Origin: Armatimonadota bacterium
Lineage (GTDB): Bacteria > Sysuimicrobiota > Sysuimicrobiia > Sysuimicrobiales > Sysuimicrobiaceae
Direction: 5' to 3'
Assembly (NCBI GenBank): GCA_025059775.1
Contig: JANXCW010000001.1
Coordinates: 221,549-285,548, forward strand
DNA length: 64,000 nucleotides
A program made the translations under genes and the position numbers. Positions 23,239 to 64,000 of this stretch are shown here, one piece after another; within the stretch, counting starts at the first letter, position 1, and each line of letters starts with the position of its first letter. The notes beneath the pieces were generated by a model. That model had not been told where the DNA came from and searched no databases. It saw nothing but the letters and a program-made list of their open reading frames with translations.

Positions 23239-23254
23239 TGGCACGGAGTGTGCA
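23239..23254 (+). promoter_or_regulatory. sigma-54 (-24/-12) promoter-like element TGGCAC-N5-GTGCA
   Basis: TGGCACGGAGTGTGCA at 23239-23254. The GG and GC dinucleotides are 12 nt apart. It lies 24 nt upstream of an ATG with a strong ribosome-binding site (GGAGGTGATTCC-ATG). Confidence 0.45.
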
Positions 23255-23278
23255 GGGCGAGGGAGCGGAGGTGATTCC

Positions 23279-23575
23279 ATGCAGGTCCGTCCTGTGGATT
23301 ATGAGCCGCAGCCACCCGGCCCTGCTTCCGGCCCCGGATTCCTCTACGCCCTGCAGCGGGTGCGGGCTGTGGGAACCGTCGGTCTTGTCCCGTCCTCCAG
23401 CACCCCTCGCACCGGGCCTGGAGCCCCCCAGTTCACCACCCCTCCCACCCCACAGTCCCCCGCACCCCCCGTATTTTTGGATCGGCTGCTGAGCTGGCTC
23501 TACCAGACGGTTCGGGGCGCCCTGGGCCTGGTGTGGTCCGGACTCGGGGAACTGGCTCGCTGGCTCCGGAAGTAG
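23279..23575 (+). CDS. small Pro-rich protein (98 aa) with C-terminal amphipathic/hydrophobic helix; hypothetical
   Basis: ORF 23279..23575. GGAGGTGA sits 5 nt before the ATG and the sigma-54-like promoter is just upstream. The gene is convergent with fliA. The low-complexity composition lowers confidence. Confidence 0.35.
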   Translation: MQVRPVDYEPQPPGPASGPGFLYALQRVRAVGTVGLVPSSSTPRTGPGAPQFTTPPTPQSPAPPVFLDRLLSWLYQTVRGALGLVWSGLGELARWLRK

Positions 23576-23603
23576 GCCGTGTGGCGTTCCCCCTCTGTCT
23601 CAC

Positions 23604-24314
23604 CTATCGGCCGAACCCACGCTGCACGAGGTAGGTTCGCAGCCGGAGCAGGGCCTGTGCGTGGATCTGGCAGACCCGGGACTCCGTGAGGTCCAGAATC
23701 TCTCCGATCTCCGCCAGGGTCAGGTCCTCGTAGTAGTACAGGCCCACCACCAGCCGCTCGCGCTCGGAGAGCGCTCCCAGGCCCTGACGCAGGGCCTCCA
23801 GCAGCTCCCGCTGCTCTGTTGCCTCCTCCGGTCCAGCGTCCGACGCCGCAGGCTCCCCCCGCTCCGTGGCCCGCCGGACCAGGTCCTCGAAGGAGGCCAC
23901 CACGTATCCGTGCAGCCGCTCCAAGTCTGCGAGGATCTCCTGCGGGGAGCAGCCCACCTCCGCTGCGAGCTCTTCCCGGGTGGGTTCTCGGCCCAGGGAG
24001 GTCACGAGCCGTTCGTGCGCCCGCTCCAACTCCCGGGCCCGCTGCCGGTCCGCTCGGCTGGCGGGGTCCAGGCTGCGGAGGTAATCCAGGATGGCACCGC
24101 GGATGCGATACCAGGCGAAGGTCTCGAACCGTACCCCGTGGGAGGGATCGTAGCGGTCCAGGGCCTCCAGCAACCCCAGCATCCCACAGCTCTCCAGATC
24201 CTCCCGGGGCACGTGGGAGGGAAGCCCCGGAGCGAGTTGCTGTACGACCGCGCGCACGAGCCCCGCATACCGCAGAACCTGCGCCTCTCGCTCCGGGGAA
24301 GCCGGCCGCGGCAT
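23604..24314 (-). CDS. fliA: flagellar sigma factor sigma-28 (FliA/SigD/WhiG family)
   Basis: ORF 23604..24710 trimmed to MPRPASPEREAQVLRYAGLVRAVV. Region 2 is YRIRGAILDYLRS. The region 4 HTH is LSERERLVVGLYYYEDLTLAEIGEILDLTESRVCQIHAQAL. It is the last gene of the fla/che operon, as in Bacillus. Confidence 0.9.
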   Translation of the reverse strand: MPRPASPEREAQVLRYAGLVRAVVQQLAPGLPSHVPREDLESCGMLGLLEALDRYDPSHGVRFETFAWYRIRGAILDYLRSLDPASRADRQRARELERAHERLVTSLGREPTREELAAEVGCSPQEILADLERLHGYVVASFEDLVRRATERGEPAASDAGPEEATEQRELLEALRQGLGALSERERLVVGLYYYEDLTLAEIGEILDLTESRVCQIHAQALLRLRTYLVQRGFGR

Positions 24315-24316
24315 GT

Positions 24317-24802
24317 CTACAGCTCCCGCTCCGGCCCGCCCGCGGTGCGCACCACCAGCCGGCCCGTGCCCACGTGCAGGGCCACCGTCCGGCTCACGCT
24401 TCCGCCCACGTCCTCCGCATGGGGCCGCAGGCCTTGCTTTCGCAGGGCTTCCCGGACCGCCTCCACGTTTCGGGCGCCCAGGTTCAGGACGCTGCTGGCT
24501 GCCATCCCGAACATCCCAGCGCCCCCTACAACCCAAACCACCGCGGAGGCCGGGTCTCCGCCGGCCCGCCGGAAGGACTCCAGCAGGGCGGGGATCGCGG
24601 TGTCCGCGAACTTGAAGGGCGCCGTGTCCCATCCGAAGGATTGAGGGAGCATCACGTGGGCCATGGCGCCCACGCGGGGGCATGGAGTGTGCAGCACCAC
24701 GGCCACACACGAACCCAACCCGCCCGCTAGGAGCACCGCCCCCGCATCCCGCTCCACCACCCCTTCCCCCATGCCGACCCGGATCACCCGCCCCTCACGC
24801 AC
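24317..24802 (-). CDS. cheD: chemoreceptor glutamine deamidase CheD
   Basis: ORF 24317..24853 trimmed to GTG (GGAGGAG ribosome-binding site). IRVGMGEGVV...LLAGGLGSCVAVVLH matches CheD. Confidence 0.85.
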   Translation of the reverse strand: MREGRVIRVGMGEGVVERDAGAVLLAGGLGSCVAVVLHTPCPRVGAMAHVMLPQSFGWDTAPFKFADTAIPALLESFRRAGGDPASAVVWVVGGAGMFGMAASSVLNLGARNVEAVREALRKQGLRPHAEDVGGSVSRTVALHVGTGRLVVRTAGGPEREL

Positions 24803-25586
24803 CGCTTCTCCTCCCCTGGGCCTTTCGGTAGAAGAAGGGGTACAGCGGCTCAAATCCCATCTCCCGCGCGGCGAAGATCTGCTCCGCGGCGCCCACGAAG
24901 AGGTACCCGCCGGGCGCCAGGGCCTGGTGGAACCGGCGGTACAGGTCCTGTTTGGCCTCCTCCGTGAAGTAGATGACCACGTTCCGGCAGAGGATGAGGT
25001 GCCAGGGGCCGTTGAAGGGGTCGGAGAGGAGATCGTGGCGCCGGAACCGCACCCTTTGCCGGAGCTCCGGGCTTACCCGCCACCGATTCTGCTCCCGTAC
25101 GAAAAACCGTGCCCGCCGCGGTGGCGACACGTTCCGGATGTCCGACTCCTCGTAGAACCCCTCTTCGGCCTGCCGCAGGACGCGGCCATCGATGTCCGTG
25201 CCCAGCACGGACCATCCTCCCGAGGGGTTCAGCTCCAGGAGGAGGATCCCCACACTGTAGGCCTCCGCGCCGTGGGAGCAGCCCGCGCTCCACACCCGCA
25301 GCTCCCGGAAACGGGCCAGCAGCTCCGGGAGGACCCGACGCTGGAGCACCGCAAAGAGTTCCGGATTCCGGAAGAACTCGGAGACGTGGACGGTGAGGCG
25401 ATCCACCAGGTCCGCGAGCAGAGCAGGGTCCTGCCGGGCCCGGGACACGAACTCCTCCGCGGAGCGCAGGCCCATGCGGTGCAGGGCACCCACCAGCCGC
25501 CGCTCAATCTGGTCGGGTCGGTATCGAGCGAGGTCCAGGCCCGTGCGCTGCTTCAGGAGATGCATCAGGGTCGCGTACTCACGCAT
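24795..25586 (-). CDS. cheR: chemotaxis protein methyltransferase CheR
   Basis: ORF 24795..25586. CheR_N (LLKQRTGLDLARYRPDQIERRL) and the SAM-dependent MTase fold (VSEFFRNPELF...LRVWSAGCSHGAEAYS...ILCRNVVIYF). Confidence 0.9.
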   Translation of the reverse strand: MREYATLMHLLKQRTGLDLARYRPDQIERRLVGALHRMGLRSAEEFVSRARQDPALLADLVDRLTVHVSEFFRNPELFAVLQRRVLPELLARFRELRVWSAGCSHGAEAYSVGILLLELNPSGGWSVLGTDIDGRVLRQAEEGFYEESDIRNVSPPRRARFFVREQNRWRVSPELRQRVRFRRHDLLSDPFNGPWHLILCRNVVIYFTEEAKQDLYRRFHQALAPGGYLFVGAAEQIFAAREMGFEPLYPFFYRKAQGRRSGA

Positions 25587-25986
25587 GGGGAGCTCCCAGG
25601 GCGCGCGCCAGCTCCTCCGCCGCGGCCCGCACTGCCCGTTCCTCCGCCTCCGTGAAGACCCCTCCCACCCGTCCCAGCACCACCACCGCCACCCGCTGCC
25701 CGGCGTGCTCCGCGGGGACCGCGAGGAACCCCCGGAGGGAACCGGCGCGAAGGCCTCGGCCCCGGGAGGGGACGCGGATGGTCTGCCCGGTCTCGAGGAT
25801 CCACGCCCGGAGGCCCATCCCGGCCTGGAAGGGGATCTGCTCCAGGAGGTCCAGGGGACGCCCTATGGAGACCGCGGGGATGGTGCCCGCGTGCGTGCGG
25901 AGCCAGACGGTCCCCAGGTCGAAGGGCACCTCCGCCCGCAGGCGCCGTAGGGCTTCCCGACACGCGCGGACCGCGCGCTCCCTCAT
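25579..25986 (-). CDS. small stand-alone GAF-domain protein (135 aa)
   Basis: ORF 25579..26286 trimmed to the ATG overlapping the cheB stop. GAF-like pattern (...GLRAWILETGQTIRVPS...FLAVPAEHAGQRVAVVVLGRVGGVFTEAEERAV). It sits between cheB and cheR, a slot normally occupied by cheA/cheW/cheC in Bacillus-type operons. Confidence 0.55.
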   Translation of the reverse strand: MRERAVRACREALRRLRAEVPFDLGTVWLRTHAGTIPAVSIGRPLDLLEQIPFQAGMGLRAWILETGQTIRVPSRGRGLRAGSLRGFLAVPAEHAGQRVAVVVLGRVGGVFTEAEERAVRAAAEELARALGAPHA

Positions 25987-26960
25987 ACCCCCTCTCCCAC
26001 GATCCGGGCCACCTCCTCCCCGATGCGCTCCAGGGGCAGCACGAAGTCCGCGAGCCCCGCTTCCACCACGGCCCGCGGCATCCCGTACACCACGCTGGTC
26101 TCCTCGTTCTGGGCGATTACGAGCCCGCCCGTCCGCTTGATGCGCCGGCAGCCCTCCAGCCCGTCCCGCCCCATGCCTGTGAGCACCACCCCCAGGACCG
26201 GGGAGTAGGTCTCCGCGAGGGAGGAGAAGGTGATGTCCGCGGATGGTCGGAGGATCTCCGAAGGTTCTGGCTCCACCACGGCCCACCGACCGTCCCGCAC
26301 CACCAGCTGCCGTCCGCCGGGTGCCACGTAAGCCACTCCGGGCTGCGGTGCGACCCCGTCCTCCGCCTCCTCTACCCGGATCCGGCCCACCTCGTGGAGC
26401 CGCCGCGCCAGGCTCGCGGTGAACCCGGGGGGCATATGCTGCACCACCACCAAGGGGAGCGGGAGGGGCGGGAGGTGGGAGAAGAATACGGTGAGGGCCG
26501 CGGGACCCCCCGTGGAGGCGGCCACGGCCACCACCCGCACCCGGGCCTTCTTCTGCCGCCGGGGAAGGCGGGCCTGGGCCGCGGCCTTCACCTTCTGCAC
26601 CAGCGGGTGGAGATCCCGCACCGACAGGGGGCCCGAAGGTTTCGCCTCCACCTCCACTGCCCCCGCTTCCAGGGCCTTGAGGGCGAGATCCGCCCCCCGG
26701 ACGGTGTGGGCGCTCAGCACCACCACGGGAGTCCAGAGCTCGCGGGCAAGGGTTCGCAGGGCCACCAACCCGTCCATTACCGGCATCTCCAGATCCAGGG
26801 TTACCACGTCCGGTCGCAGCCTCCGGACCAGCTCCACGGCCTGGGCACCGTGGGCGGCTAAGCCCACTACCTCCACCTCTGGATCCTGCTCCAGGGCGGA
26901 GCAGAGCAGTCCTCGAAAGGTAGGGGAGTCGTCGACCACCACCACCCGGACCCGCCTCAT
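25983..26960 (-). CDS. cheB: protein-glutamate methylesterase/deamidase CheB (REC + methylesterase)
   Basis: ORF 25983..27749 trimmed to MRRVRVVVVDDSPTFRGLL (REC with DD, D-phosphosite, T, K). The methylesterase domain carries AVAASTGGP, VVQHMPPGFT and GMGRDG. Confidence 0.9.
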   Translation of the reverse strand: MRRVRVVVVDDSPTFRGLLCSALEQDPEVEVVGLAAHGAQAVELVRRLRPDVVTLDLEMPVMDGLVALRTLARELWTPVVVLSAHTVRGADLALKALEAGAVEVEAKPSGPLSVRDLHPLVQKVKAAAQARLPRRQKKARVRVVAVAASTGGPAALTVFFSHLPPLPLPLVVVQHMPPGFTASLARRLHEVGRIRVEEAEDGVAPQPGVAYVAPGGRQLVVRDGRWAVVEPEPSEILRPSADITFSSLAETYSPVLGVVLTGMGRDGLEGCRRIKRTGGLVIAQNEETSVVYGMPRAVVEAGLADFVLPLERIGEEVARIVGEGV

Positions 26961-27568
26961 CTCCTGGACCGCCACATCTCCTCCCGCGTCGTGAGAACCC
27001 TCCGGGCCGCGGCCGCGCTTAAGGGATCCCACTGGATGCCCACCGCGAAGGACCGAGCCCGATCGAACTGCGGCCGGCTCCACACCACCCGGCCTACGAG
27101 GGAAGCCCCCGCCCGTCCCGGAACCGTGACGAGCACCTGCTCGCCGGGTCTGGGCTCCGGCCAGGGGTTCACGAGCTCCAGGCGACACCCTCCCGCGGAG
27201 AGATCCACCAGCCACGCCTCTACGAGTCGCGTGGGGTGCTGATCCAGGCGGGCCATGTACACACGGGCGGACAGAGGCCGACGGGGCAGAGCCCGCCGAT
27301 CCACGGGGCGCAGCGGTCCCGCCAGTCGCACGCACACCGCCTCCACGGGCAGCCGCACGCACTCCGTTACGGTCCCCTCGAACTCCCAGGCCCCACCCTC
27401 CCCGTACAGCCGACCCCGCACCCGGGTTCCGGCGGGCAGCAGGAAGGGCTGTCCTCGCTCCATGGGGGCGCTGAGGAGAACCTGGCCCGCGCCCACTTCC
27501 TCCACCCGCACGGGGTAGGCTCTCCCGCCCACCCACAGCTCCACCCGCTGGTTCTCCCGCAGCTCCAT
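26957..27568 (-). CDS. YcgR/MotI-like PilZ-domain protein (PilZN + PilZ), predicted c-di-GMP-binding flagellar brake
   Basis: ORF 26957..27568. The RxxxR motif (RRALPRRPLSAR) and DxSxGG motif (DLSAGGCRL) of PilZ are both present. It occupies the flhF/flhG position between flhA and cheB. Confidence 0.75.
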   Translation of the reverse strand: MELRENQRVELWVGGRAYPVRVEEVGAGQVLLSAPMERGQPFLLPAGTRVRGRLYGEGGAWEFEGTVTECVRLPVEAVCVRLAGPLRPVDRRALPRRPLSARVYMARLDQHPTRLVEAWLVDLSAGGCRLELVNPWPEPRPGEQVLVTVPGRAGASLVGRVVWSRPQFDRARSFAVGIQWDPLSAAAARRVLTTREEMWRSRR

Positions 27569-27571
27569 GGC

Positions 27572-29584
27572 TTATCCGTCTATGCTGACCATCCCCAGCT
27601 TGTGGAGGTTCAGGTCCGGCTCCAGCTCCTCGAAGGCAATCACCGGGATCTGCGGGACCACGTGCTCCACGAGCCGCCGCACCGCGCTGCGCACGACCCC
27701 GGAGCACAGGAGCACGGGGTGGGGGCTTCCTCGAGAGGCGGCCTCCCACGCGGTTCGGATGGCTTGTTGCAGCCGATGCAGGACCTCCGCATCCACCCGC
27801 TTGCCCTGGGCGCCATCCACGAGCGCGGCCTCCGCACTGGGGTCCAAGACCAGCACGTGCAGGCGGCGTGCTTCATCCAGCAGGTGCTGGTAGAGGCCCC
27901 GACCCAGGGCCCGCCGCACGAGCTCCACAAGTCGTTCAGGCTCCTTCACGGATCGTCCATGATCCGCCAGGGTCTCCAGGATGGTGACGAGGTCCCGGAT
28001 GGGCACACCTTCCTGCAGGAGCAGCTGCAGCACCCGCTGCACCTCGCCCACGCTCAGGACTTGAGGCACCAGCTCCTCCACCAGGGCCTTCTGCCGCTCC
28101 CGCAGCCGATCCAGCATCTCCTGGACATCCTGCCGGCTCAGCAGGCGCCACCCGTGGCGCCGCACCACCTCCGCGAGGTGGGTGGCCACCACCACGGAGG
28201 GCTCCACCACGGTGTAGCCGCTCGCCTCCGCCACCGCCCGCTCGTGCTCCGAGATCCACACCGCGGGGGTACCGAAGGTAGGATCCGTGGTCTGTACGCC
28301 GGGCAGTTCCGGTGCCTCCGGGGCGGTCCGGATGGCCAGTAACCCCCCGGGCATTACCTCCCCCCGGGCCACCTCTACGCCCCGGAGGAGAATCCGGTAC
28401 TCCCGGGAACCCAGGGTGGGTTCATCCCGCACCCGGACGGGCGGGATCACGAGGCCCATCTGAGCGGCCACCTGCCTGCGCAGGGCCACGATGCGCTGCA
28501 ATAGATCCCCACCCCGGGTGGGCTCCACCAGCTCGATGAGGCCGTAGCCGATCTCCACGCAGAGGGGATCCACCTCTGTGAGGCCGTGCACGGCCTCCTG
28601 GGGGGGCGCGCTCGGCGCCTGCGGCTCGGGCGGGTTCTGCGGGGCCCGCAGTGCCCACCCCACCGCGGCCAGAACCCCTCCCACGAGCAGAAACGCCAGT
28701 TTGGGGAGGCCTGGAAACAGCCCTACTGCGGCCACGATGCCGCCCGCGGCCAGAAGCGGTCGCCACCGGGCCGTGAGCTGGGCCACGAGGTCCGCACCCA
28801 GGTGGTCCCCACCCGCGGTGCGGGTGAGGATGAGGCCGCTTGCGGCGGAGAGCAACAAGGAAGGGATCTGGAGCGCGAGCCCGGCCCCCACCGCCTGGAG
28901 GGCGAAGGCCTGCGCGGCCTCCCCGGGCGAGAGGCCGCGGCCCAGGCCGACTCCGAACCCGCCCAGGAGGTTGATGGCGGTGATCAACAGGCCCGCGATG
29001 GCATCCCCCCGCACAAACTTGCTGGCCCCGTCCATGGAGCCGAAGAAGTCGGACTGTCGCTCCACCTGCCGCCGCCGCTCTCGGGCCGCCTCCTCCGTGA
29101 GGGTACCCGCGTTGAGCTCCGCGTCGATGCTCATCTGCTTGCCGGGCATGGCGTCCAGGGCGAACCGGGCCGCCACCTCCGCCATGCGGCTGGTGCCGTT
29201 GGTGACCACCAGGAACTGCACGAGGAGCAGGATGGTGAAGATCACCAGGCCTACCACGAGGTTTCCGCCCACCACGAGGCCCCCGAAGGCGGCCACCACA
29301 CTCCCCGCGGATCCCTGGGTGAGGATGAGGCGGGCCATGGCCACGTTGAGACCCAGCCGTCCCAGGGCCGCGGCCAACAGCAGGGAGGGAAACACCGATA
29401 GCTGCAGGGGATCCGTGACGTACGCGGTGGCGAGCAGCACCACCACGGAGAGGGCCAGGTTCGCGATGAGCAGGACGTCCACGAGCGGGGTGGGAAGGGG
29501 AACCACCAGGGTGGCGGTGATCAGCAGCAGGCACGCCACCAGTCCCAGGTCGCTGCTCTGCACGAGCCGCCGGCCGAAGGTCAC
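27572..29584 (-). CDS. flhA: flagellar biosynthesis protein FlhA
   Basis: ORF 27572..29701 trimmed to the GTG that overlaps the flhB stop (GTGA). Motifs FPSLLLAAALGRLGLNVA, RFALDAMPGKQMSIDAELNAG and GSMDGASKFVRGDAIAGLLI. Confidence 0.9.
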   Translation of the reverse strand: MTFGRRLVQSSDLGLVACLLLITATLVVPLPTPLVDVLLIANLALSVVVLLATAYVTDPLQLSVFPSLLLAAALGRLGLNVAMARLILTQGSAGSVVAAFGGLVVGGNLVVGLVIFTILLLVQFLVVTNGTSRMAEVAARFALDAMPGKQMSIDAELNAGTLTEEAARERRRQVERQSDFFGSMDGASKFVRGDAIAGLLITAINLLGGFGVGLGRGLSPGEAAQAFALQAVGAGLALQIPSLLLSAASGLILTRTAGGDHLGADLVAQLTARWRPLLAAGGIVAAVGLFPGLPKLAFLLVGGVLAAVGWALRAPQNPPEPQAPSAPPQEAVHGLTEVDPLCVEIGYGLIELVEPTRGGDLLQRIVALRRQVAAQMGLVIPPVRVRDEPTLGSREYRILLRGVEVARGEVMPGGLLAIRTAPEAPELPGVQTTDPTFGTPAVWISEHERAVAEASGYTVVEPSVVVATHLAEVVRRHGWRLLSRQDVQEMLDRLRERQKALVEELVPQVLSVGEVQRVLQLLLQEGVPIRDLVTILETLADHGRSVKEPERLVELVRRALGRGLYQHLLDEARRLHVLVLDPSAEAALVDGAQGKRVDAEVLHRLQQAIRTAWEAASRGSPHPVLLCSGVVRSAVRRLVEHVVPQIPVIAFEELEPDLNLHKLGMVSIDG

Positions 29585-30627
29585 CAGGGCACCTCCCGCA
29601 GCTGGCCCGAGCGGTACAGCGCCGCGAGCAGTTCCGCCACCGCGTGGTACAGGGCGGGTGGGATCATGCGGCCCAGCGCGACACCCCGGTAGAGGGCCCA
29701 CGCGAGGGGCGGATTCTCCACGACCGGCACCCGGTGGCGGACTGCCTCTTCCCGGATGCGGTCCGCCATCTTCCGAGCCCCCTTCGCGACCACCACGGGC
29801 GCGGGCGCTTCCCGCGGAGCGTACCGGAGGGCCACGGCCACGTGCACGGGGTTGGTGACCACTACCGTGGCCCGGGCCACGTCCCGCAGCATCCGGCGTC
29901 GCGCGAGTTCCCGGGCCCGGGCCCGCTGTCGGGACCGCACGAGGGGATCGCCCTCCGTCTCCCGCAGCTCCTCCCGCACCTCCTGCTTGGTCATGCGCAG
30001 GGCGCGCTCGTGTTCAAAGCGCTGGTAGAGATAGTCCAATCCCCCAAGAAAGGCCAGGGCAATAGCCCCCCGCAGGGCCACCGCGTACACCGTCCTTCCT
30101 ATCCAAACGGCAAGTGCCGAGGGAGAGAGGATCGCGGGAGGTGTCTCCAATACAGCCTTCTGGAGCGGCCCCCACACCGCCACGGCCACCGCGGCCACCT
30201 TGAGCAGGGCCTTCAAGCCCTCCACCACGGAGCGCAGGGAGAAAAGCCGCTCCAGGGCTCGCAGGGGGTTGAGGCGGTCCAGGCTCGGCTCCAGGGGCTT
30301 GCCGCTGAACAATCCCCCGGTCTGCGCCACGCCCGCCGCGAGCCCGGCTGCAAGGGCCGCGCCCACCACGGGACCCATAAGCCACACAGCGGCCACCACG
30401 CCCTCGGCCACCAGGGCCGGGAGCTGATGCGGATCCGGGGAGCTCAGCACGCGCCGGGTGTACTCCGCATACGCTCCGAACCCACCCGGAAGGGCAAGAG
30501 CCCCCGTCGCCACCGCAGCCAGGAGGGCCGCGCCCTGTGTGAGGTCGTGGCTCCGGGCCACCTGCCCCCGGCGTCGGGCCTCCTGGCGCCGCCTCGGGGT
30601 CGCGGGTTCCGTGCGCTGGCTCGCCAT
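29581..30627 (-). CDS. flhB: flagellar biosynthesis protein FlhB
   Basis: ORF 29581..30627. MASQRTEPATPRRRQEARRRGQVARS and the NPVH autocleavage site (VVVTNPVHVAVAL). Confidence 0.9.
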   Translation of the reverse strand: MASQRTEPATPRRRQEARRRGQVARSHDLTQGAALLAAVATGALALPGGFGAYAEYTRRVLSSPDPHQLPALVAEGVVAAVWLMGPVVGAALAAGLAAGVAQTGGLFSGKPLEPSLDRLNPLRALERLFSLRSVVEGLKALLKVAAVAVAVWGPLQKAVLETPPAILSPSALAVWIGRTVYAVALRGAIALAFLGGLDYLYQRFEHERALRMTKQEVREELRETEGDPLVRSRQRARARELARRRMLRDVARATVVVTNPVHVAVALRYAPREAPAPVVVAKGARKMADRIREEAVRHRVPVVENPPLAWALYRGVALGRMIPPALYHAVAELLAALYRSGQLREVPW

Positions 30628-51895: not shown

Positions 51896-51897
51896 CC

Positions 51898-53364: not shown

Positions 53365-53374
53365 GGCGGTCCCC

Positions 53375-54385: not shown

Positions 54386-54422
54386 CTCGCCCCCTTGAAC
54401 CTTTTTACGGTTATCGTCCGAA

Positions 54423-55839: not shown

Positions 55840-55850
55840 ACCTTCCTCCG

Positions 55851-56213: not shown

Positions 56214-58131
56214 GCGCCAGTTCCTCCTCTCGTACCGCGAGGCGCACCAACCGCGCGGGGTCCAGGATGAGGGCCACCCGCCCGTCCCCTAGGATGGTGG
56301 CCCCCAGCACCCCGGGCACCTCGCCGAGGTAGTTCCCCAAGGGTTTCACCACGACCTCCCCCTCGCCCACCACCCCGTCCACCCACAGCCCCACCCGCCG
56401 CCGGCCGAAGCTCACCACCACGCACAGGAGCCGGTCTGGGTCCGGAGGTACGGGAAGATCCAGGATCTCGTGCACGGACACCAGGGGGAGCACCGAACCC
56501 CGCAGCACCGTGGTGCGGCACGCACCCACCCGGTGTACCCGGGAGGCCGGGATCTCCACGATCTCGTGCACCGACGAGATGGGGACCACATAGCGCTCCC
56601 CCCCGCAGGTCACCGTCACAGCCCGCACGATGGCCAGGGTGAGGGGAAGCCGCAGGAGGAATCGGGTGCCCCGGCTCCGCTCCGTCTCCACCTCCAGGCT
56701 TCCGCCCACCGCCTGCACGCCAGCCCGCACCGCATCCATGCCCACGCCCCGGCCGGAGACGTCCGTGACCACCGCGGCGGTGCTGAGCCCCGGGTGGAAG
56801 ATGAGTTCCACCGCCTCCCGCTCCGTCAGGCGCGCGGCGGCCTCTGGGCTGAGGATGCGCAGCTCCACGGCCCGGCGGCGCACCCGATCCGTGTCGATCC
56901 CCCGACCATCGTCCTCCACCACCACCACGATCCCGTCCTCCTGGTAGGCCGCCAGGCGCAGCCGGCCCGTCCGCGGCTTTCCGAGCCGCTCCCGCTCCTC
57001 CGGGGACTCGATGCCGTGGTCCACCGCGTTGCGCACGAGGTGCATGAGCGGGCCGCCGATCTGCTCCAGGATGGACCGGTCCAGCTCTACGTCCTGCCCC
57101 TCCAGCACCACCTCCACCTCCTTGCCGGACCGTCGTGCCAGGTCCCGCACGTACCGGGGGAAGCGGCTGAAGAGGTGCTCCATGGGCAGCATGCGGGTCT
57201 TGAGCACCTGGGCCTGCAGGTCCGTGGCCACGCGGCCCAGGTGAGCCGTGGCGTCCAGGATCTCCTCTAGGAGGCCGTGGGCCCTCTCGCCCGCGCGCAG
57301 TCGGTGGGCGATCTGCTGGAACCGGATGCGATCCACCACCAGTTCCCCCACCAGGTTCATGATCCGGTCCAACCGCTCCACATCCACCCGCACGGTGCGC
57401 AGGGCGGCCCGCCGGCTCACCTCCGGATCCTGCAGGAGCTTGCCCCGAGCCTGCGGGCCCAGATCCAGCCACCGTTCGTCCCGCGGGGCCTCCGAAGCGG
57501 GCAGGACCCGTACGGATTCCACGTCTGCGCCCGAGAGGAGCTCCAGGAGGACCTCTGGCTCCCGCACCCGGGCCCGGCAGCTCAGCTCCAGATCCAAGGC
57601 CCCCCCACGGATCTCCTCCTCGGAGGGCACCACCTGTTCGACCTCGCCTTCCCGGCGAAGTATCTGCAGCAGGGCGAGTGCCCGGGCTGCCCGCATGGGG
57701 CAGTCCTCCCGCAGCCGGATCCGCACCTCCACGGGGTGGAGCGTCTCCGCGGAGGCTCCCTCCTGCCAGGCCTCCAACTGCCGCACCAGCTCCCCCACCT
57801 CCGTGCGCTCCTCGCCTGTCTCCGCCACCTCCTGCCGCAGGGATCGGAGCGCATCCACGCACGCGAGCAGGAGGTCCGCCAAGCCCTCCGCGCTCCGGCG
57901 TCCCCCTCGCAGCGCGTCCAGCACCTCCTCCATGCGGTGCGTGAGTTCCGCCATGCGTCGGAACCCGAGCGCCGCCGCACTTCCCTTGAGGGTGTGGGCG
58001 CTGCGAAAGAGGCTCTGCACGAGCCCTGCATCCGCGCCCTCGCGCTCCAGCTGCAGCACCCCCTCCTCCAGGATCTGCAGGTGCTCCTCTGCCTCCGCGA
58101 GGAAGGTGGGGAGGAGCTTAGCGAGGTGCAC
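56203..58131 (-). CDS. cheA: chemotaxis histidine kinase CheA
   Basis: ORF 56203..58131. The HPt domain carries the SAHTLKGSAAALG motif. Dimerisation and HATPase_c domains (HLVRNAVDHGIE, DDGRGID, GRGVGMD) and a C-terminal CheW-like domain follow. Confidence 0.9.
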   Translation of the reverse strand: MHLAKLLPTFLAEAEEHLQILEEGVLQLEREGADAGLVQSLFRSAHTLKGSAAALGFRRMAELTHRMEEVLDALRGGRRSAEGLADLLLACVDALRSLRQEVAETGEERTEVGELVRQLEAWQEGASAETLHPVEVRIRLREDCPMRAARALALLQILRREGEVEQVVPSEEEIRGGALDLELSCRARVREPEVLLELLSGADVESVRVLPASEAPRDERWLDLGPQARGKLLQDPEVSRRAALRTVRVDVERLDRIMNLVGELVVDRIRFQQIAHRLRAGERAHGLLEEILDATAHLGRVATDLQAQVLKTRMLPMEHLFSRFPRYVRDLARRSGKEVEVVLEGQDVELDRSILEQIGGPLMHLVRNAVDHGIESPEERERLGKPRTGRLRLAAYQEDGIVVVVEDDGRGIDTDRVRRRAVELRILSPEAAARLTEREAVELIFHPGLSTAAVVTDVSGRGVGMDAVRAGVQAVGGSLEVETERSRGTRFLLRLPLTLAIVRAVTVTCGGERYVVPISSVHEIVEIPASRVHRVGACRTTVLRGSVLPLVSVHEILDLPVPPDPDRLLCVVVSFGRRRVGLWVDGVVGEGEVVVKPLGNYLGEVPGVLGATILGDGRVALILDPARLVRLAVREEELAHVG

Positions 58132-58630
58132 CGTCCCCCTCCGGGTGCGTAAGGGCGGGCTCGAGGTCCCGCAGGGCCTGCTGCTCAGCGATCTCCAGTA
58201 CCCGGTGCAGGTCCAGCAGGAGGATGAGCCCCTCCCCGTGCTTGGCGACGCCCCGAAGGAACGCCACCTGGCCTGTGGCCAGCAGCTCCTCCGGGGGCAC
58301 CACGCTGCGAGCGGGAATCCGCAACACCTCCAGCACCGCGTCCACCACCACGCCCACCCGGCTTCCGTTCATCTCCACCACCACGATGCGGGTCGCGCCG
58401 TCCCGCTCCCCCGCGGGGAGCCCGAACCGCCGCCGCAGGTCCAGCACGGGGATCACCTGCCCCCGGAGGTTGATGACCCCCTCTACGAACTCGGGTGCCC
58501 GGGGGATGCGGGTCACCTCCTGCATCCGGATGATCTCGTGCACGTGCTCGATGGCGAAGCCGTACCGCTCCCGGTCGAGCCGCACCACCACCAGGTGCTG
58601 CTCCAGCTCACCCGTGGCTTTCCGGTCCAC
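58118..58630 (-). CDS. cheW: chemotaxis coupling protein CheW
   Basis: ORF 58118..59137 trimmed to the GTG behind GGGAGGTGA. QHLVVVRLDRERYGFAIEHVHEIIRMQEVTRIPRAPEFVEGVINLRGQVIPVLDLRRRFGL. Confidence 0.85.
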   Translation of the reverse strand: MDRKATGELEQHLVVVRLDRERYGFAIEHVHEIIRMQEVTRIPRAPEFVEGVINLRGQVIPVLDLRRRFGLPAGERDGATRIVVVEMNGSRVGVVVDAVLEVLRIPARSVVPPEELLATGQVAFLRGVAKHGEGLILLLDLHRVLEIAEQQALRDLEPALTHPEGDGAPR

Positions 58631-58635
58631 CGCAC

Positions 58636-60063
58636 TCACCTCCCTGACTCCAGCTCCACGCGGACCTCGCCGCTTTGGAGGGCCTCCACGAAGACATCCA
58701 CCACCTCCGGATCGAACTGCCGTTCCCGCTGGGCCCGCAGCTCCTCCATCGCGGCCTCCACGGGAACCGGGGGGCGGTAGATGCGGCCCGCGGTCATCAC
58801 CTCGAAGGCGTCCACCACGGCCAGGATGCGGGCCCCCACCGGGATCTCCTTTCCCGCAAGCCCCATGGGGTATCCGCGGCCGTCCCACCGTTCGTGGTGG
58901 TGCAGGACCCAGCGCACCACGTCCTCCCCGAATCCCGCCGCGGAGAGGATCTCCGCGCCCATCACCGTGTGCCGCTTGACGACCTCGTACTCCTCCGGGG
59001 TGAGGGGTCCGGGCTTGAGCAGGATGGCGTCGCGGATGCCGATCTTGCCCACATCGTGCAGCATCCCCGCCACCCGCAACTCCTGCAGGCTGAGCTCCGA
59101 AAACCCCAACCGCCGGCCCACGGCCACCGCGTAGCACGCGAGCCGTTCACTGTGCCCCCGCAGGGTGGCCTCATGGAGCTCACAGGCATAGGCCAGGGCG
59201 TTCACGAGGCTCTGGTTCGCCTGCTGGACCCGGCGCACGAGATCCACCTGGAGGAGCGGAAGAGCCCCCAGCACACCCAGCAGGTTCAACAGCTCCCGGT
59301 GCACGGGGCCGAAGGGTTCGCGGGACCGGGTTCGGAAGACGGTGAGGGCTCCCAGGGTACGGCCCGCGGTGGCCAGCGTCGCGGTAAGCACCTCCCCCGA
59401 GTCCTCTGCGGGTAGGCGCGCATGGGTCAGGCGGTCGGGCAGGAGCGTCCACAGGTGTTCCGCCAGCGAGCCGCCCGCCTGCTGCACCGTGGCCACCACC
59501 AGGTCCTGGGCCTGCGGGTTCAGGGTCACCACCGCGGCCCGATCCGCGCCCAGGCTGTGCCGGGCGATCTCCACCAGCCGCCGCAGCACCTCCTCCGGGC
59601 TGCCGTCTGCGGGCACCAGCTCCCGCAACCGCTGGAGCGGCCGCAGCACCGCAAGCTGCAGCTCTTCCCGGAAGATCCGGTGAGCGCGCACCGCGGAGTG
59701 TACCTCCTCCGCGAGAGCCTCGCCCGTAACAGGCGGTGCCAGCAGGGCCCGCGCGCCCTGTCGCACCGCCTCTGGCATCCGCGCGGGCGGGGCCACGGCC
59801 ACCACGGGGAGGTGCGGGTACGTCCGGGCGAGCACGGCCACGGCCTCCAGGCCCTCCTCGCCCATGGCCGCCACGTCCACCGCGAGGGCGTCTGCCTCCC
59901 CGCTCAGAAGCGCGGCCCGCGCCGCGTCCAGGGTGGGGACCCAGCGGAAGGCCACCGCGTTTCCGCCCCCCTCCAGGGGATCCGGCCTCAGCACCACGCA
60001 CCGCAGCGGCTCCACGCGGCTGCCTCCTACCCGTGGGATTGCAACTCCCGTGCCGTGCACCAC
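58636..60063 (-). CDS. HD-GYP c-di-GMP phosphodiesterase with N-terminal degenerate receiver and GAF domains
   Basis: ORF 58636..60063. HD-GYP motifs MLHDVGKIGI and HHERWDGRGYP. The N-terminal REC-like domain keeps the Asp (ALAVDV) but lacks the conserved Thr and Lys (VVAVAPP, ALLAPPV). Confidence 0.8.
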   Translation of the reverse strand: MVHGTGVAIPRVGGSRVEPLRCVVLRPDPLEGGGNAVAFRWVPTLDAARAALLSGEADALAVDVAAMGEEGLEAVAVLARTYPHLPVVAVAPPARMPEAVRQGARALLAPPVTGEALAEEVHSAVRAHRIFREELQLAVLRPLQRLRELVPADGSPEEVLRRLVEIARHSLGADRAAVVTLNPQAQDLVVATVQQAGGSLAEHLWTLLPDRLTHARLPAEDSGEVLTATLATAGRTLGALTVFRTRSREPFGPVHRELLNLLGVLGALPLLQVDLVRRVQQANQSLVNALAYACELHEATLRGHSERLACYAVAVGRRLGFSELSLQELRVAGMLHDVGKIGIRDAILLKPGPLTPEEYEVVKRHTVMGAEILSAAGFGEDVVRWVLHHHERWDGRGYPMGLAGKEIPVGARILAVVDAFEVMTAGRIYRPPVPVEAAMEELRAQRERQFDPEVVDVFVEALQSGEVRVELESGR

Positions 60064-61242
60064 TCAGGAAGCCCCGTCCAGCCGGATGTCCGCGGCGCCG
60101 ATCCACTCGTCCTGGGTCAGGATGACGGCCCGGTGGATCACCGCCTCCAGTTCCCGCACGTTCCCGGGCCACGAGTACTCCAGGAGCTTGCGCAGGGCCG
60201 CTTCCCGCAGGCCCCGCACGGGCTTGCCCATCTGTTTCCGGTACTTCTGCACGAAGAACTCCGCGAGCAGGGGCACGTCCTCCACCCGCTCCCGGAGGGG
60301 CGGAAGCCGCAGGGTCACCACGTTGAGCCGGTAGTACAGGTCCTCCCGGAAGGTCCCCTCCTGCACCATCCGCACAAGGTCCCGGTTGGTGGCCGCCACC
60401 ACCCGGCAATCCACCTTGATGGGTCGGGTGCCGCCCACCCGTTCCACCACCCGTTCCTGCAGCACCCGCAGCAGCTTCACCTGCATCCGGGGTGACATCT
60501 CACCCACCTCGTCCAGGAAAATGGTGCCCCCATGGGCCTGCTCGAACTTCCCCGGTCGGGAGGTGAGCGCATGGGTGTAGGCACCTTTCTCGTGGCCGAA
60601 GATCTCCGTCTCCAGCAGGGTTTCGGGGATGGCGCCGCAGTGCATCACCACCAGCGGCCCGCTGGCTCTGCGGCTCTGCAGGTGGATGGACCGGGCCACC
60701 AGCTCCTTGCCTGTGCCGCTCTCACCCACCAGCAGCACCGTGGCGTCCGTGGGAGCCACGATGGAGGCCACCCGCAGGACCTCCAGCATGGCAGGGCTCG
60801 TCCCCACCACCCCGTCGAACCGGTACGCCCGAGCTAGATCCGCCTGCAGGCGGGCCCGTTCCTCCCGCAGCCGCCGCTCCTGGGCCAGCTCCAGTACCCG
60901 GACGAAGAGCCGCTCCTCCCACCCGGGCCCGGCAAGGAAGTCCAGGGCGCCGTTGCGCACCGCGACCACCGCCTCCTCCACGGTGCCTTCGGGACGCACC
61001 ACGAGCACCGGGCAACCCGGGAAGGCGGCCACCAGTTCCGGCACCGCCCTCGGATCCACGGTGACCACCACGTGGGCCGAGCCCGGATCCTTCCCCCGGC
61101 TCATCAGAACATCCGCCCCCTCCTGCTCCAACCGCACCCCCACGGCCTCCAACAGGCCCTGCCCGTCCACCAGGAGGACGGTGAGGCCCCGCAAGGGGCT
61201 CGCGAAGGATTCCGCGGTGCTCGTGATGGCGGCAGCCGGCAT
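60064..61242 (-). CDS. sigma-54-dependent AAA+ activator (bEBP) with degenerate receiver domain and no C-terminal HTH DNA-binding domain
   Basis: ORF 60064..61317. The start is uncertain: ATG at 61242 is preferred, and TTG 61317 or ATG 61296 are alternatives. Walker A GESGTGKELVARSIH. GAFTGA-equivalent EIFGHEKGAYTHA. R-finger/sensor II ...LPPLRERVEDVPLLAEFF...NVRELE. The protein stops about 25 aa after sensor II with no Fis-type HTH. The REC-like N-domain lacks the DD pair and the conserved Lys (VLLVDGQG..., FLAGP). Confidence 0.8.
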   Translation of the reverse strand: MPAAAITSTAESFASPLRGLTVLLVDGQGLLEAVGVRLEQEGADVLMSRGKDPGSAHVVVTVDPRAVPELVAAFPGCPVLVVRPEGTVEEAVVAVRNGALDFLAGPGWEERLFVRVLELAQERRLREERARLQADLARAYRFDGVVGTSPAMLEVLRVASIVAPTDATVLLVGESGTGKELVARSIHLQSRRASGPLVVMHCGAIPETLLETEIFGHEKGAYTHALTSRPGKFEQAHGGTIFLDEVGEMSPRMQVKLLRVLQERVVERVGGTRPIKVDCRVVAATNRDLVRMVQEGTFREDLYYRLNVVTLRLPPLRERVEDVPLLAEFFVQKYRKQMGKPVRGLREAALRKLLEYSWPGNVRELEAVIHRAVILTQDEWIGAADIRLDGAS

Positions 61243-61326
61243 CGCGCCCGATCCGTTCCGGTTGCGAGGATCCCAAGGGGACTCGCGTCCGAACATTATG
61301 CAAAAACCGTGCCGCAAGTCCGGACG

Positions 61327-63096
61327 CTACACGGTGAACCGGGCCACGAGCCGCTCCAGCTCCCCGGCCGCCTGCGCCAGGCGTTGAGCGCTTTGGGAGA
61401 CCTCCCGGGTGCTGCTGGCGATCTGCTCCGTGGCGGCACTCCCCTCCTCCGCGGAGGCGCTGTTCTGCTGCGCCAGTTGCAGCAGCTGCGCCACGATCCC
61501 CTCAATCTGCTGGGCGCTCGCCGCCAGCTGCTGGGTGGCCGCGGAGATCCCCTCCACCCGGGCGGTGACATCGTGGACGCTGGCGCGGATCCGCTGGAAG
61601 GCCTCCCCGGCCTCGTCCACGAGTTTCACCCCACTCGCCACCTCCCGCGCGCCCTGCTCCATGGTTCGCACAGCCCGCTCCGTCTCCCCCTGGATCTCCT
61701 CCAGGATCCCCGCGATCTGCTCTGCTGCCTGCGCGCTCTCCTGCGCCAACTTCCGCACCTCCTCCGCCACCACCGCAAACCCCCGCCCCTGCTCCCCAGC
61801 CCGCGCCGCCTCAATGGCCGCGTTCAGCGCCAAAAGATTCGTCTGCGACGCAATCTCCGTGATCAACTTCACGATCCGCCCGATGTTCCGCCCTCGCTCC
61901 CCCAGCGCCCCGATCACCCGACCCATCTCCTCCGCGGCCCGTCGGATCTCGCCCATGGCCTGCACGACCCGTTCCACCCGCAGGGCTCCCTCCACCGCGG
62001 CCTCCCGGGCCTGCTGGGCCAGGGAGGCCGTACGTCCCGTGTTCTGGGCCACCTCCTCCAAGCTCTGGCTGATCTGTCGCACGGTCTCCGTGGTCTCCGT
62101 CACGCTCCGGACCTGCTGCTCCGCCCCACCCGCCACCTGCTGTACCACCCGGCTGATCTCCTCCGCGCTCCGGCTCACCTGCTCGCTGCCTGCGGCCACC
62201 TGCTGAGCAGCGCTCGCCACCTCCCCCGCGGTGGCGGCGATCCGGTGGACGAGGGTGAGTAGCTGCTCCGCGGTCTGGTTGAAGCAGTGAGCCACCCGAC
62301 CGAGCTCGTCCTCCCCCCGCACGGGGATCCGCACCCGAAGGTCTCCGTCCGCCAGGGCCATGAGGGCGGAGCGAACCGCGGCCACCTGGCTCCCTATCCC
62401 CCGCGCGGAGAACACCGCCAGTCCCCCGCCCACCACGAACCCGAGCAGCAGCACAGTCCACAGGGCCCTGCGCATCCCCGCGGCGCGGGCCCCGGCGGCG
62501 CTCAATTGGGCCCGGGTGGCACTTTCAAAGGCATCCTGCACCTGGCCGATGTACTGTCGGGTCGGCTCCAAGGTGCTGAGCACCGTGGTCCGCGCCCGCT
62601 GGAGGGCGGTGTATGTAGGAAGCTCTCCCCGCTCGTACAGCTTCCACACCGCGGTGATCTCCTGCCGCCACCGGTGCACCCCGTCCGCAAATCCGTCCAG
62701 CAGCACGACGATCCCCTGTTCGGGTACGAGCTGCTTGGCCTGGGTTGCCCGCGCCACCGCGCGGTTCAGGTTCTCATCCACCGCCTGGGCCAGCTCCCGA
62801 TAGCTGGCCTGCCAGGTCGGCGTGGCCAGCAGGAGGTAGAAAGCCGAAAGGGCCCGGTACAGGTCCCGGTCCGCCTGGAGCACCAAGGCCAGGGCCGCGG
62901 CCCTCCGGTTCCCCAGGGTCTCCAGGTCCCGGTGCACCGTGCCCACGCTCCGCAGCCCTACTAGACCCACCGCAAGCCCCAGGAGCGTGGGAACAACCGC
63001 CAGGGCCAGCAGCTTCGTGCGCATGGACCAGTTGGAGACGCGCAGCCGGTGCTTCCATCCGTGCTCCATGCCCGCTCCCTCCTGCCCGTACCTCAC
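61327..63096 (-). CDS. methyl-accepting chemotaxis protein (TM - periplasmic 4-helix-bundle sensor - TM - HAMP - MCP signalling domain)
   Basis: ORF 61327..63096. Conserved signalling hairpin [51 protein letters not shown]. Confidence 0.85.
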
Positions 63097-64000
63097 ACCT
63101 GGAAGGCCGCCACGAGCCGCTGGAGATCCGTGGCGAGCTGGGCCAAGGACTGCCCGTGTCGGGCGAGCTCGTGGCTACTGGCGGAGATCTGCTCCGTGGC
63201 CGCGCTCACCTGCTGGGCAGACGCGCTGTTCTCCTCGCTCAGGCCCGCAAGATCCCCCGCGGCCGCGTCCACCTGCCGGGCCGCGCCCGCCAGCTCCTCC
63301 AGGAATCCCCGCACGTGCTCCACCCGCCGCACCAGCCCCTCCACGCTGCGCAGGATCTCGCTGAAGGCCTCGTCCGCCCGGCCGATGACCTCCGCGCCCC
63401 GGGCCACCTCCCTGCTCGTGTGCTCCATGGTTCGCACGGCCCGCTCCGTCTCCCCCTGGATCTCCTCCAGGATCCCCGCGATCTGCTCTGCTGCCTGCGC
63501 GCTCTCCTGCGCCAACTTCCGCACCTCCTCCGCCACCACCGCAAACCCCCGCCCCTGCTCCCCAGCCCGGGCTGCCTCAATGGCCGCGTTCAGCGCCAGC
63601 AGGTTCGTCTGCGACGCAATCTCCGTGATCAACTTCACGATCCGCCCGATGTTCCGCCCCCGCTCCCCCAGCGCCCCGATCACCCGACCCATCTCCTCCG
63701 CGGCCTCCTGGATCCCCGCCATGGCAGCCCGGGCTTCCTCCACCTGCTCCCGGCCGCGCACCGCGGCTCGCGAGGCCTGGTCCGCGGCCTGGGCAGCGTC
63801 CGTGGCCTCCCGGGCCGCCTCGCCCAGGGATTGGGTCATGTGCTGGATGGCCTGCACCACCTCTCCTACCCTCCGGGCCTGCACTTCCGCCCCCTGGGAG
63901 ACACCTTGGACCGCGGTGGCGATCTCAGACACGCTGCGGTTAGTTTGCTCGCTGGTGGCCGCCATCTCCTCGGCGGAGGCAGTGAGGGTGCTCGAGACCC
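63093..64000 (-). CDS. second methyl-accepting chemotaxis protein, C-terminal signalling part only; the 5' end lies beyond the right edge
   Basis: ORF 63093..63965 continues upstream without a stop. It has the same MCP signalling hairpin. Its stop overlaps the downstream MCP start. Confidence 0.8.

Follow-up and report, generated by a model that had tools for sequence, protein, structure and literature searches.

In Bacillus subtilis, the fla/che operon is transcribed from sigma-A and sigma-D promoters, and to our knowledge sigma-54 (SigL) has no part in its transcription. In Campylobacterota, the export-apparatus genes of the flagellum are sigma-70-dependent and scattered, and in Cereibacter (Rhodobacter) sphaeroides the activator FleT acts jointly with the DNA-binding FleQ. 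The link between sigma-54 and flagella has long been known (PMC3162934), and sigma-54 flagellar hierarchies are worked out almost exclusively in Pseudomonadota and Campylobacterota; the main review of them covers proteobacterial mechanisms and no other phylum (PMC3930126). Activators without a DNA-binding domain have been described, including FlgR of Helicobacter pylori, which activates from solution (PMC3930126), and CtcC of Chlamydia, which consists of regulatory and AAA+ domains and acts on sigma-54 promoters (PMC7482065). Specialisation of paralogues of RpoN (sigma-54) is also documented (PMC12316311). A 2025 survey of 33 classes reported motility enrichment in Gracilicutes-type lineages alone (Proteobacteria, Thermodesulfobacteriota, Opitutia, Planctomycetia and Deferribacteres); for Bacillota it shows no more than isolated predicted sites (PMC12316311). 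Our full-text literature search returned no paper on RpoN and flagella for Armatimonadota, Atribacterota, Chloroflexota or Gemmatimonadota. Here we analyze a 64-kb stretch of DNA (contig JANXCW010000001.1, positions 221,549 to 285,548; hereafter the window) that carries a Bacillus-like colinear flagellar and chemotaxis supercluster together with rpoN and a gene for a sigma-54 activator of the enhancer-binding protein (EBP) family.

Sigma-54 very likely drives this cluster. The fuller model that we favor, and consider likely, is that the units of the supercluster are each headed by a sigma-54 promoter, that these promoters are opened by the EBP encoded in the cluster, and that a FliA (sigma-28) tier follows. 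The cluster comprises 40 kb of flagellar and chemotaxis genes cut into at least seven co-directional units. The window contains six exact matches to the pattern GGCAC-N5-TTGCA, each of them on the minus (gene) strand, against a chance expectation of 0.09. Six matches were reached in none of 100 dinucleotide-preserving shuffles, and a chance origin was rejected on these grounds. Three one-mismatch or relaxed sites (at 23240 on the plus strand, 52796 on the minus strand and 48927 on the plus strand) raise the total to nine. Eight of the nine precede transcription units, and seven lie in short gaps at unit heads. They match 10-11 of the 12 positions of TGGCAC-N5-TTGCW, with exactly 10 nt from GG to GC; the first base at most sites is C or G, not the consensus T. 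The sites have no dyad symmetry and are always oriented in the same way with respect to the genes.

A position weight matrix was built from 27 sites of sister genera, with the window and its closest relative excluded. With this matrix the nine window sites score 16.8-27.4 bits, while the maxima of 30 block shuffles averaged 12.1 bits and peaked at 19.4 bits; the scan covered the 64-kb window. Ten matrix hits of at least 12 bits were found in the window versus 0.73 expected, and neither the pattern nor the matrix scan found a high-scoring site in the first 23 kb of the window, which are non-flagellar. An earlier first-pass annotation, made from the DNA letters alone, had placed exact matches upstream of flgB, fliL and flhB (48872-48886, 36041-36055 and 30645-30659, minus strand) and a fourth site, TGGCAC-N5-GTGCA, at 23239-23254 on the plus strand. 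All four are where it put them, and its chance estimate of about 0.1 agrees with the shuffles. Its count of sites was too low, as five more are present (61299, 60040, 42956, 52796 and 48927).

Six of the nine sites are exact matches on the minus strand. In the direction of transcription, the first is GGCACGGTTTTTGCA at 61299-61313 (24.9 bits), upstream of the EBP gene with its ATG at 61242. The promoter candidate of the HD-GYP/che/rpoN unit, GGCACGGGAGTTGCA at 60040-60054 (19.9 bits), begins 9 nt past the EBP stop codon and faces a GTG at 60016. The site of flgB, GGCACCGATCTTGCA at 48872-48886 (25.3 bits), has its -12 GC 12 nt before the flgB GTG at 48860. The top-scoring site (27.4 bits) is again GGCACGGTTTTTGCA, located at 42956-42970 within the 3' portion of fliJ; about 130 nt further downstream, at 42826, is the ATG of a lytic transglycosylase gene. 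The fliL site is GGCACGGAAGTTGCA at 36041-36055 (24.2 bits; ATG at 36017), and the flhB site is GGCACGACCTTTGCA at 30645-30659 (16.8 bits; ATG at 30627). On the plus strand, GGCACGGAGTGTGCA at 23240-23254 (22.8 bits) precedes a small open reading frame (ORF) with its ATG at 23279, and the weaker site GGCAGGGATCTTGCA (GGCAG-N5-TTGCA; 48927-48941, 20.9 bits) faces a divergent GAF-PAS-GGDEF gene at 48973-50913 (GTG at 48973). The remaining site, GGCACCGGTTGTGCA at 52796-52810 on the minus strand (GTGCA type, 20.5 bits), falls within an ORF rich in proline (51898-53364), part of an insertion of pilus-like genes that is specific to the window, and the function of the site is uncertain.

The geometry of the sites relative to the genes is tight. 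The promoters start 2-10 nt past the preceding stop codons. We counted leader lengths from the -12 GC on the basis of Escherichia coli glnAp2, in which transcription begins at the twelfth base past the C of this element. Six predicted leaders span 7-46 nt. The five of at most 21 nt each carry a Shine-Dalgarno sequence: flhB (7 nt), fliL (13 nt, GGAGGG), the HD-GYP gene (14 nt, AGGAGG), the small ORF (14 nt, GGAGGTG, in line with the strong ribosome-binding site noted earlier) and the GGDEF gene (21 nt, GGAGG). The EBP gene has a predicted leader of about 46 nt with no clear Shine-Dalgarno sequence. For flgB, the start codon stands at the predicted start site, giving a 1-nt leader with no Shine-Dalgarno sequence. 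The first-pass annotation had considered a leaderless flgB plausible, and the near-leaderless geometry is real and conserved: the predicted leader is 4 nt in relatives, and the near-leaderless layout is therefore no accident of this genome.

The hook protein FlgE of the window is 94% identical to that of a Candidatus Sysuimicrobium calidum bin; with Candidatus Tepidifontimicrobium and several Armatimonadota-labelled bins, the identity is 72-77%. For the window EBP and RpoN, NCBI proteins labelled 'Armatimonadetes bacterium' match at 100% identity. In the NCBI taxonomy, Sysuimicrobium belongs to the phylum Sysuimicrobiota of the kingdom Bacillati, and Sysuimicrobiota (formerly CSP1-3) lie in Terrabacteria beside Armatimonadota (PMC11604079). 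The paper that named the phylum describes genes for flagella and chemotaxis in two families and does not treat their regulation (PMC11604079). Judged by sequence identity, the host is thus a member of Sysuimicrobiota/CSP1-3 and not a Firmicute, yet on the same side of the bacterial tree. A Firmicutes origin was rejected on the same evidence, the closest genomes being Candidatus Sysuimicrobium and Tepidifontimicrobium, and the earlier description of a Firmicutes-like genome does not hold in the strict sense. The G+C content of the window is 70%.

The -24/-12 elements were compared across eight related genomes (L002-L007, L082/L084/L085 and L086-L088), with FlgE 72-94% and FliA 67-91% identical to the window proteins. 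The elements are kept: 36 sites occur in the eight genomes at matching positions, namely at the last methyl-accepting chemotaxis protein (MCP) gene, the EBP gene, the HD-GYP gene, flgB, inside fliJ, fliL and flhB. The 30 nt on either side of these 36 sites carry almost no information, and the flanks diverge. Orthologous sites precede both the EBP gene and the HD-GYP gene in L082, L084 and L085. The flgB orthologue, GGCACCGATTGTGCA, stands directly past the rpoN stop codon in L003, L004, L005, L007 and L085. The fliL site is kept in L002-L007, including the spacer GGAAG/GGAAC. The flhB site reads TTGCA in its -12 part in L002 and GGCACGG(G/C)CTGTGCA in L003, L004, L005 and L007. Orthologues of the small-ORF promoter are found in L087 (TTGCA) and L088 (GTGCA), despite a differing upstream neighbour.

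The site inside fliJ permits a separate test of what is being conserved. It is kept in five of the five relatives that cover the region, and the peptide W-A-R-F-L-Q is specified there through the rare codons GCA (8%), TTT (15%) and TTG (6.5% of synonymous usage in the window). The joint probability of these codons is 8e-4, and they are retained in all genomes covering the region. This points to selection on the DNA and not on the protein alone, and coding constraint as the only explanation of the site was rejected.

Both protein components of a sigma-54 system are encoded in the cluster, at the positions given by the first-pass annotation. The product of rpoN (54448-55839, minus strand) passes the equivalog cut-off of TIGR02395 (287.7 versus 277.35 bits) and has the Pfam domains Sigma54_CBD (2.6e-41) and Sigma54_DBD (1.5e-35). 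Its region I, the activator-interacting domain, gives a weak match (1.2e-5) and is absent from the precomputed Pfam list for most orthologues. The EBP gene (60064-61242, minus strand) encodes 392 aa with Pfam domains Sigma54_activat (PF00158, E = 6.7e-70) and AAA_lid_14. The protein consists of a degenerate receiver-like N-terminal domain and an AAA+ sigma-54 activator domain, and in the orthologue alignment the Walker motifs GESGTGKE and FLDEVGE are invariant.

What sets this EBP apart is what surrounds its ATPase domain. Pfam and the alignment show no helix-turn-helix (HTH) domain HTH_8, as all orthologues end 5-12 residues past the AAA lid, and there is no Response_reg hit by Pfam or in the precomputed domain lists. 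The orthologue group (P0001-P0022) comprises proteins of 380-414 aa and one of 303 aa, all lacking both HTH_8 and Response_reg. In contrast, EBP paralogues of about 450 aa from related bins (about 60% identity) carry both. Relative to them, the window EBP has a 7-residue deletion at the loop of the phospho-acceptor Asp (LLD-x-x-x-P), and the acidic DD pair and the conserved Thr and Lys are replaced. In an AlphaFold model, residues 20-130 form an alternating beta/alpha, receiver-like fold with a predicted local distance difference test score (pLDDT) of 73-90; the model, from a 15-sequence alignment, is poor overall (mean pLDDT 58.5, AAA+ below 50), and the N-terminal topology alone is usable. 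A fold search gave receiver plus AAA+ activators such as NtrC1 as the best full-length matches, with ranks that are largely sequence-based, and FleQ AAA+ domains are among the best sequence matches in the structural database (E ~1e-79). The protein reaches no NCBIfam equivalog cut-off (FlgR, 272.5 versus 750; FlbD, 340.9 versus 750), and no kinase gene is paired with it. Because it has neither a DNA-binding domain nor a phospho-acceptor, the EBP probably engages the holoenzyme from solution and not from upstream enhancers, as does FlgR of H. pylori. With promoters only 2-10 nt past stop codons, there is no room for intergenic enhancers.

In relatives, a hairpin (GGGGGGAGC...GCTCCCC with a T-run) lies within the 95-120 nt between the EBP promoter and the EBP start (L082 9908-10000, L084 4403-4520, L085 9898-10000). 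The 46-nt leader of the window (61243-61298) is without it. The hairpin might act as an attenuator or mark where a short sigma-54-dependent RNA ends.

A second tier is indicated by FliA and its candidate promoters. The gene fliA is the last of the flhB unit, and its product scores 237.1 bits against FliA_WhiG TIGR02479 (cut-off 189.6). Elements of the form TCAAG-N15/16-GCCGATAA precede flbD-motAB and also flgM-like and flagellin genes in L082 and L085; with respect to the sigma-28 class TAAA-N15-GCCGATAA, the -35 part here is TCAA, differing from TAAA. In the window, this sigma-28-type promoter is TCAAGAGTTGATCTCCCTGCGCCGATAA at 39141-39168 (minus strand), which overlaps the last nine codons and the stop of flgE, upstream of flbD-motAB. 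The element is conserved in seven genomes, the window and L002-L007 (for example L002 1732, L003 11188 and L006 9448), and within flgE it uses the rare codons CAA, TTG and CGA. In relatives, the flgM and flagellin genes are found on the upstream side of the MCP and EBP genes, in a region beyond the end of the window. The combination of sigma-28-type promoters with a fliA that closes the last sigma-54 unit argues for a two-tier hierarchy, sigma-54 followed by sigma-28. The Campylobacter/Vibrio-like class logic suggested earlier fits in this respect, while its placement in a Firmicutes-like genome does not. As a separate observation, a G+C-rich hairpin is present between flgE and flbD in relatives and none is seen there in the window.

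From these elements, we propose the following mechanism. RNA polymerase with the cluster-encoded RpoN would sit on the -24/-12 sites as closed complexes. The AAA+ activator of the cluster, lacking a DNA-binding domain and a phospho-acceptor, would open these complexes from solution. Since the EBP gene and rpoN themselves stand downstream of sigma-54 promoters, activation would reach the activator's own gene and rpoN in a positive feedback, so that the system could behave as a self-reinforcing switch. It would extend to the genes for the rod, MS-ring, C-ring, export apparatus and hook, to the che genes, to cyclic-di-GMP enzymes and effectors, and finally to fliA. FliA would then drive the sigma-28-type promoters of flbD-motAB and, as in the relatives, of flgM and flagellin. 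The presence of HD-GYP, GGDEF, HDOD and PilZ/YcgR-like genes within the units suggests a cyclic-di-GMP link to the switch, and cyclic-di-GMP may feed into or out of it.

Several points weigh against this model. All evidence is computational and derives from metagenome bins of an uncultivated hot-spring organism. A leaderless GTG start of flgB would be inefficient in model bacteria. The invariant loop of the EBP orthologues is GAYTHA, not GAFTGA: the Thr is kept, Phe is changed to Tyr and the second Gly to His. The canonical EBP paralogues of related genomes pose a specificity problem for a non-DNA-binding activator, and one of them could be the real activator or a co-activator. The terminator-like hairpin past the EBP promoter in relatives complicates a simple feedback. 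The rpoN and EBP genes need some sigma-54-independent expression at the outset, and this first expression is unexplained by the model. A scan of 47.5-64 kb for sigma-70-type promoters gave one hit versus 0.5 expected and is therefore uninformative on that expression, being weak at 70% G+C. Of the individual sites, that at 52796 lies inside an ORF and lacks an orthologous position in relatives, where rpoN abuts flgB, and that at 48927 is a GGCAG variant facing a GGDEF gene that is lacking there in relatives.

Some of these points would fit a different role for the sites, in which they do bind the sigma-54 holoenzyme but are accessory, acting as boosters, roadblocks or poised complexes, while the main transcription runs as in Bacillus through long sigma-70/sigma-28 operons. 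The hairpin past the EBP promoter, the need for an initial sigma-54-independent expression and the location of one site inside fliJ and another inside a different ORF are all compatible with it, and conserved intragenic sigma-54 binding is documented as widespread in E. coli (PMC4591121). We nevertheless regard accessory sites as unlikely, given that seven of the nine sites fall in short gaps at unit heads with leaders of ribosome-binding-site size, that conservation extends to every unit head across genera, and that the EBP gene and rpoN are embedded in the cluster; the sigma-70-type scan of 47.5-64 kb, weak as it is at this G+C content, also gave nothing above chance.

Doubt about the activator itself leads to another possibility, namely that the sites are sigma-54 promoters whose true activator is a different, DNA-binding EBP with its gene outside the cluster, or a hetero-oligomer with such an EBP like FleQ/FleT of C. 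sphaeroides, and that the HTH-less protein is a modulator or anti-activator. Paralogues with receiver (REC), AAA and HTH domains (about 60% identity) do exist in related bins, a related lineage has a full REC-AAA-HTH EBP in an equivalent EBP/HD-GYP/rpoN module, and the window protein combines a receiver-like domain that is not phosphorylatable with the change from GAFTGA to GAYTHA. Its HTH-less form is, however, uniform among orthologues with Walker A, Walker B and the loop Thr kept, it heads the regulatory block behind its own sigma-54 promoter in all genomes checked, and the intergenic space is too small for enhancers; we therefore find this explanation quite improbable. Least probable of all, to the point that we give it hardly any weight, is that the motif is no promoter but a repeat, or an operator for some unrelated DNA-binding protein, whose likeness to TGGCAC-N5-TTGCA is coincidental. 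Nothing specific speaks for it beyond the C or G at the first base of most sites, whereas the exact GG/GC spacing, the one orientation, the fixed distance to start codons, the lack of dyad symmetry, the co-occurrence with rpoN and the EBP and the absence from the non-flagellar part of the window all speak against it.

The gene content of the units was assigned by Pfam and NCBIfam. On the minus strand the order begins with two MCP genes, the EBP gene, the GAF/HD-GYP gene, cheW, cheA, cheY and rpoN, followed by three pilus-like genes and then the divergent GAF-PAS-GGDEF gene on the plus strand. The HD-GYP/che/rpoN unit (54448-60016, minus strand), whose order is identical in relatives, contains the HD-GYP gene (GAF-HD_5, 58636-60016), cheW (~58118-58597), cheA (56203-58131), cheY (55851-56213) and rpoN. 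The flagellar order from flgB to fliA, including FlbD and FliY, was confirmed by Pfam as it had been read earlier. It starts with flgB, flgC, fliE, fliF, fliG, fliH, fliI and fliJ (42823-48860, minus strand), where FliJ scores 49.5 bits against TIGR02473 (cut-off 50.45). Next comes the unit of the lytic transglycosylase gene, the fliK-position ORF, flgD, flgE, flbD, motA and motB (37322-42826, minus strand); the flagellar lytic transglycosylase gene spans 42305-42826, with its start codon read from the sequence, and the fliK-position ORF (40794-42308, minus strand) has no Pfam or NCBIfam hit. The fliL unit (30665-36017, minus strand) consists of fliL, fliM, fliY (CheC and FliN domains), a fliO-position ORF, fliP, fliQ, fliR and an HDOD gene, and the flhB unit (23604-30627, minus strand) of flhB, flhA, a PilZ/YcgR-like gene, cheB, a small GAF gene, cheR, cheD and fliA. 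Genes beyond the earlier list are the lytic transglycosylase gene after fliJ, a Na/Ca exchanger gene before fliL, the HDOD gene after fliR, the PilZ/YcgR-like gene after flhA and the small GAF gene between cheB and cheR. The Pfam annotation of the window contains neither flhF nor flhG/FleN, and Rfam at gathering thresholds gave no hit in the window.

The small ORF behind the plus-strand site at 23240 (98 aa, 23279-23575, plus strand) is convergent with fliA and has no Pfam or NCBIfam family hit. Its orthologues of 95-98 aa (L087 6735-7022 and L088 6730-7026, both minus strand) share conserved N- and C-terminal thirds with a variable, proline-rich middle. Its product may be an undescribed flagellum-associated protein.

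Compared with the relatives, the window carries two insertions. One, at 48973-54535 between rpoN and flgB, includes genes for a Big_5 protein, a pilus-N-like ORF, a CpaB/RcpC-like gene and the GAF-PAS-GGDEF gene; the other, at 36096-37097, is the Na/Ca exchanger gene between motB and fliL. At both, the sigma-54 promoters are retained on the downstream side. One related genus has an FlhF-like gene of the SRP54 family after flhA (L086 1958-2761); in the window (27568-27572), L087 and L088 there is no such gene, and the PilZ/YcgR-like gene follows directly. No FlhG/FleN gene was seen in the loci of the window, L086, L087 and L088.

We further examined how far the layout and its control extend to other phyla. 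The colinear flagellar order is also present in loci of Atribacterota, Gemmatimonadota, Actinomycetota and Chloroflexota, and the order that had been called that of Firmicutes is thus not specific to them. In Gemmatimonadota, TGG[A/C][A/C]C-N5-TTGC is located just upstream of flgB in 12 of the 12 loci covering the region, 333-376 nt upstream of FlgC (loci L025-L079), and wherever the sequence extends that far (L042, L043, L044 and L079) an HTH-bearing EBP gene adjoins on the upstream side. In Atribacterota-like loci (L009-L021), rpoN abuts flgB, and the conserved motif TGGCA-N7-TYATC stands 24-54 nt ahead of the starts of flgB and flhB, with a -24 element resembling that of sigma-54 and no GC at -12 (for example L009 265-281 and 17816-17832; L013 425 and 17818). 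This motif may be a non-canonical class of sigma-54 promoter; for a third copy, inside fliH, coding constraint may be the reason. Reading of the flgB upstream regions in Bacillota and Chloroflexota loci showed nothing comparable. The strict pattern is almost nil outside Sysuimicrobiota, and a phylum-specific feature was considered and rejected on account of the relaxed sites in Gemmatimonadota and the different motif in Atribacterota.

A distant lineage, with RpoN 40% identical to that of the window, has a compact module (L089 2622-9218, L092 1564-7996) of a REC-AAA-HTH EBP, a REC-GAF-HD-GYP protein, rpoN, a GAF-GGDEF protein and a FliA-like sigma factor, from which we infer that the linkage of EBP, HD-GYP, rpoN and GGDEF genes predates the family of the window. 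Whether this RpoN group is a housekeeping paralogue in the same genomes was considered; its members come from other assemblies with their own EBP/HD-GYP/rpoN/GGDEF/sigma module and are thus uninformative on paralogy here.

The combination of sigma-54 with a Bacillus layout had been called unusual. It is indeed essentially undescribed, but it is less anomalous than assumed, since the same order stands behind a sigma-54-type promoter and an EBP in Gemmatimonadota. We conclude that the combination is under-described and not unique to this genome. A more far-reaching reading seems to us possible, if rather doubtful: the cluster would be a dedicated, self-amplifying sigma-54 module, its switch set by the amount of activator, or by cyclic-di-GMP or a protein partner that acts on the degenerate receiver, and not by a kinase or an enhancer, with the GAYTHA loop and RpoN region I co-adapted, and sigma-54 control would be old and the sigma-A/sigma-D control of Bacillus derived. 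If true, the co-adapted loop and the divergent region I would give promoter-independent specificity beside canonical EBPs. Likewise, taken with the rpoN-flgB junction of Atribacterota and the flgB sites of Gemmatimonadota, sigma-54 control of the colinear supercluster would be old and widespread.

The window provides a clean, conserved example in a candidate phylum on the Terrabacteria side. A layout that Bacillus reads with sigma-A and sigma-D is here read, on our model, with sigma-54, suggesting that gene order and regulatory logic are uncoupled, and the case is relevant to the question of an ancestral sigma-54 control of flagella. The predicted system is minimal (rpoN, one small EBP and short enhancer-free promoters) and could be rebuilt in E. 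coli as a means to study specificity without DNA binding. For the present its practical use is restricted, since the organisms have not been cultured and all steps of the system are predictions.

Among known systems, those of Campylobacter jejuni and H. pylori are similar in having sigma-54 on the basal-body, rod and hook operons, sigma-28 on late genes and a single dedicated EBP. They differ in that FlgR acts as a genuine response regulator with FlgS as its kinase, whereas the receiver-like domain in the window lacks the phospho-acceptor region, and in that fliPQR and flhBA stand here behind sigma-54 sites, with everything in one supercluster. FleQ of Pseudomonas and FlrA of Vibrio resemble the window EBP in its predicted top-level position, in a receiver-like domain that is not phosphorylated and in a link to cyclic-di-GMP that is putative here. 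They have, however, a C-terminal HTH, enhancer binding, a second EBP tier (FleSR/FlrBC) and the countering FleN; by Pfam annotation, the window has no HTH on the EBP, no second EBP and no FleN/FlhG. The fla1 system of C. sphaeroides (RpoN2, FleQ and the HTH-less FleT) is comparable in its dedicated flagellar sigma-54 and in an EBP without a DNA-binding domain. CtcC of Chlamydia differs from the window EBP in that it has retained the site of phosphorylation together with a cognate kinase, and its target genes are developmental, not flagellar. The B. subtilis fla/che region is alike in its gene order from flgB to sigD/fliA, in FlbD and in FliY (CheC-FliN); in the window, this layout is broken by at least seven -24/-12 promoters, rpoN and the EBP gene are among its members, motAB lies inside the cluster and flhF/flhG are lacking. 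Overall, a control scheme of Campylobacter/Vibrio type is probably operating here in a very different lineage, and it is distinguished by a single activator with neither a DNA-binding domain nor a phosphorylation site, by the inclusion of rpoN and the activator in their own regulon and by the Bacillus-like colinear layout.

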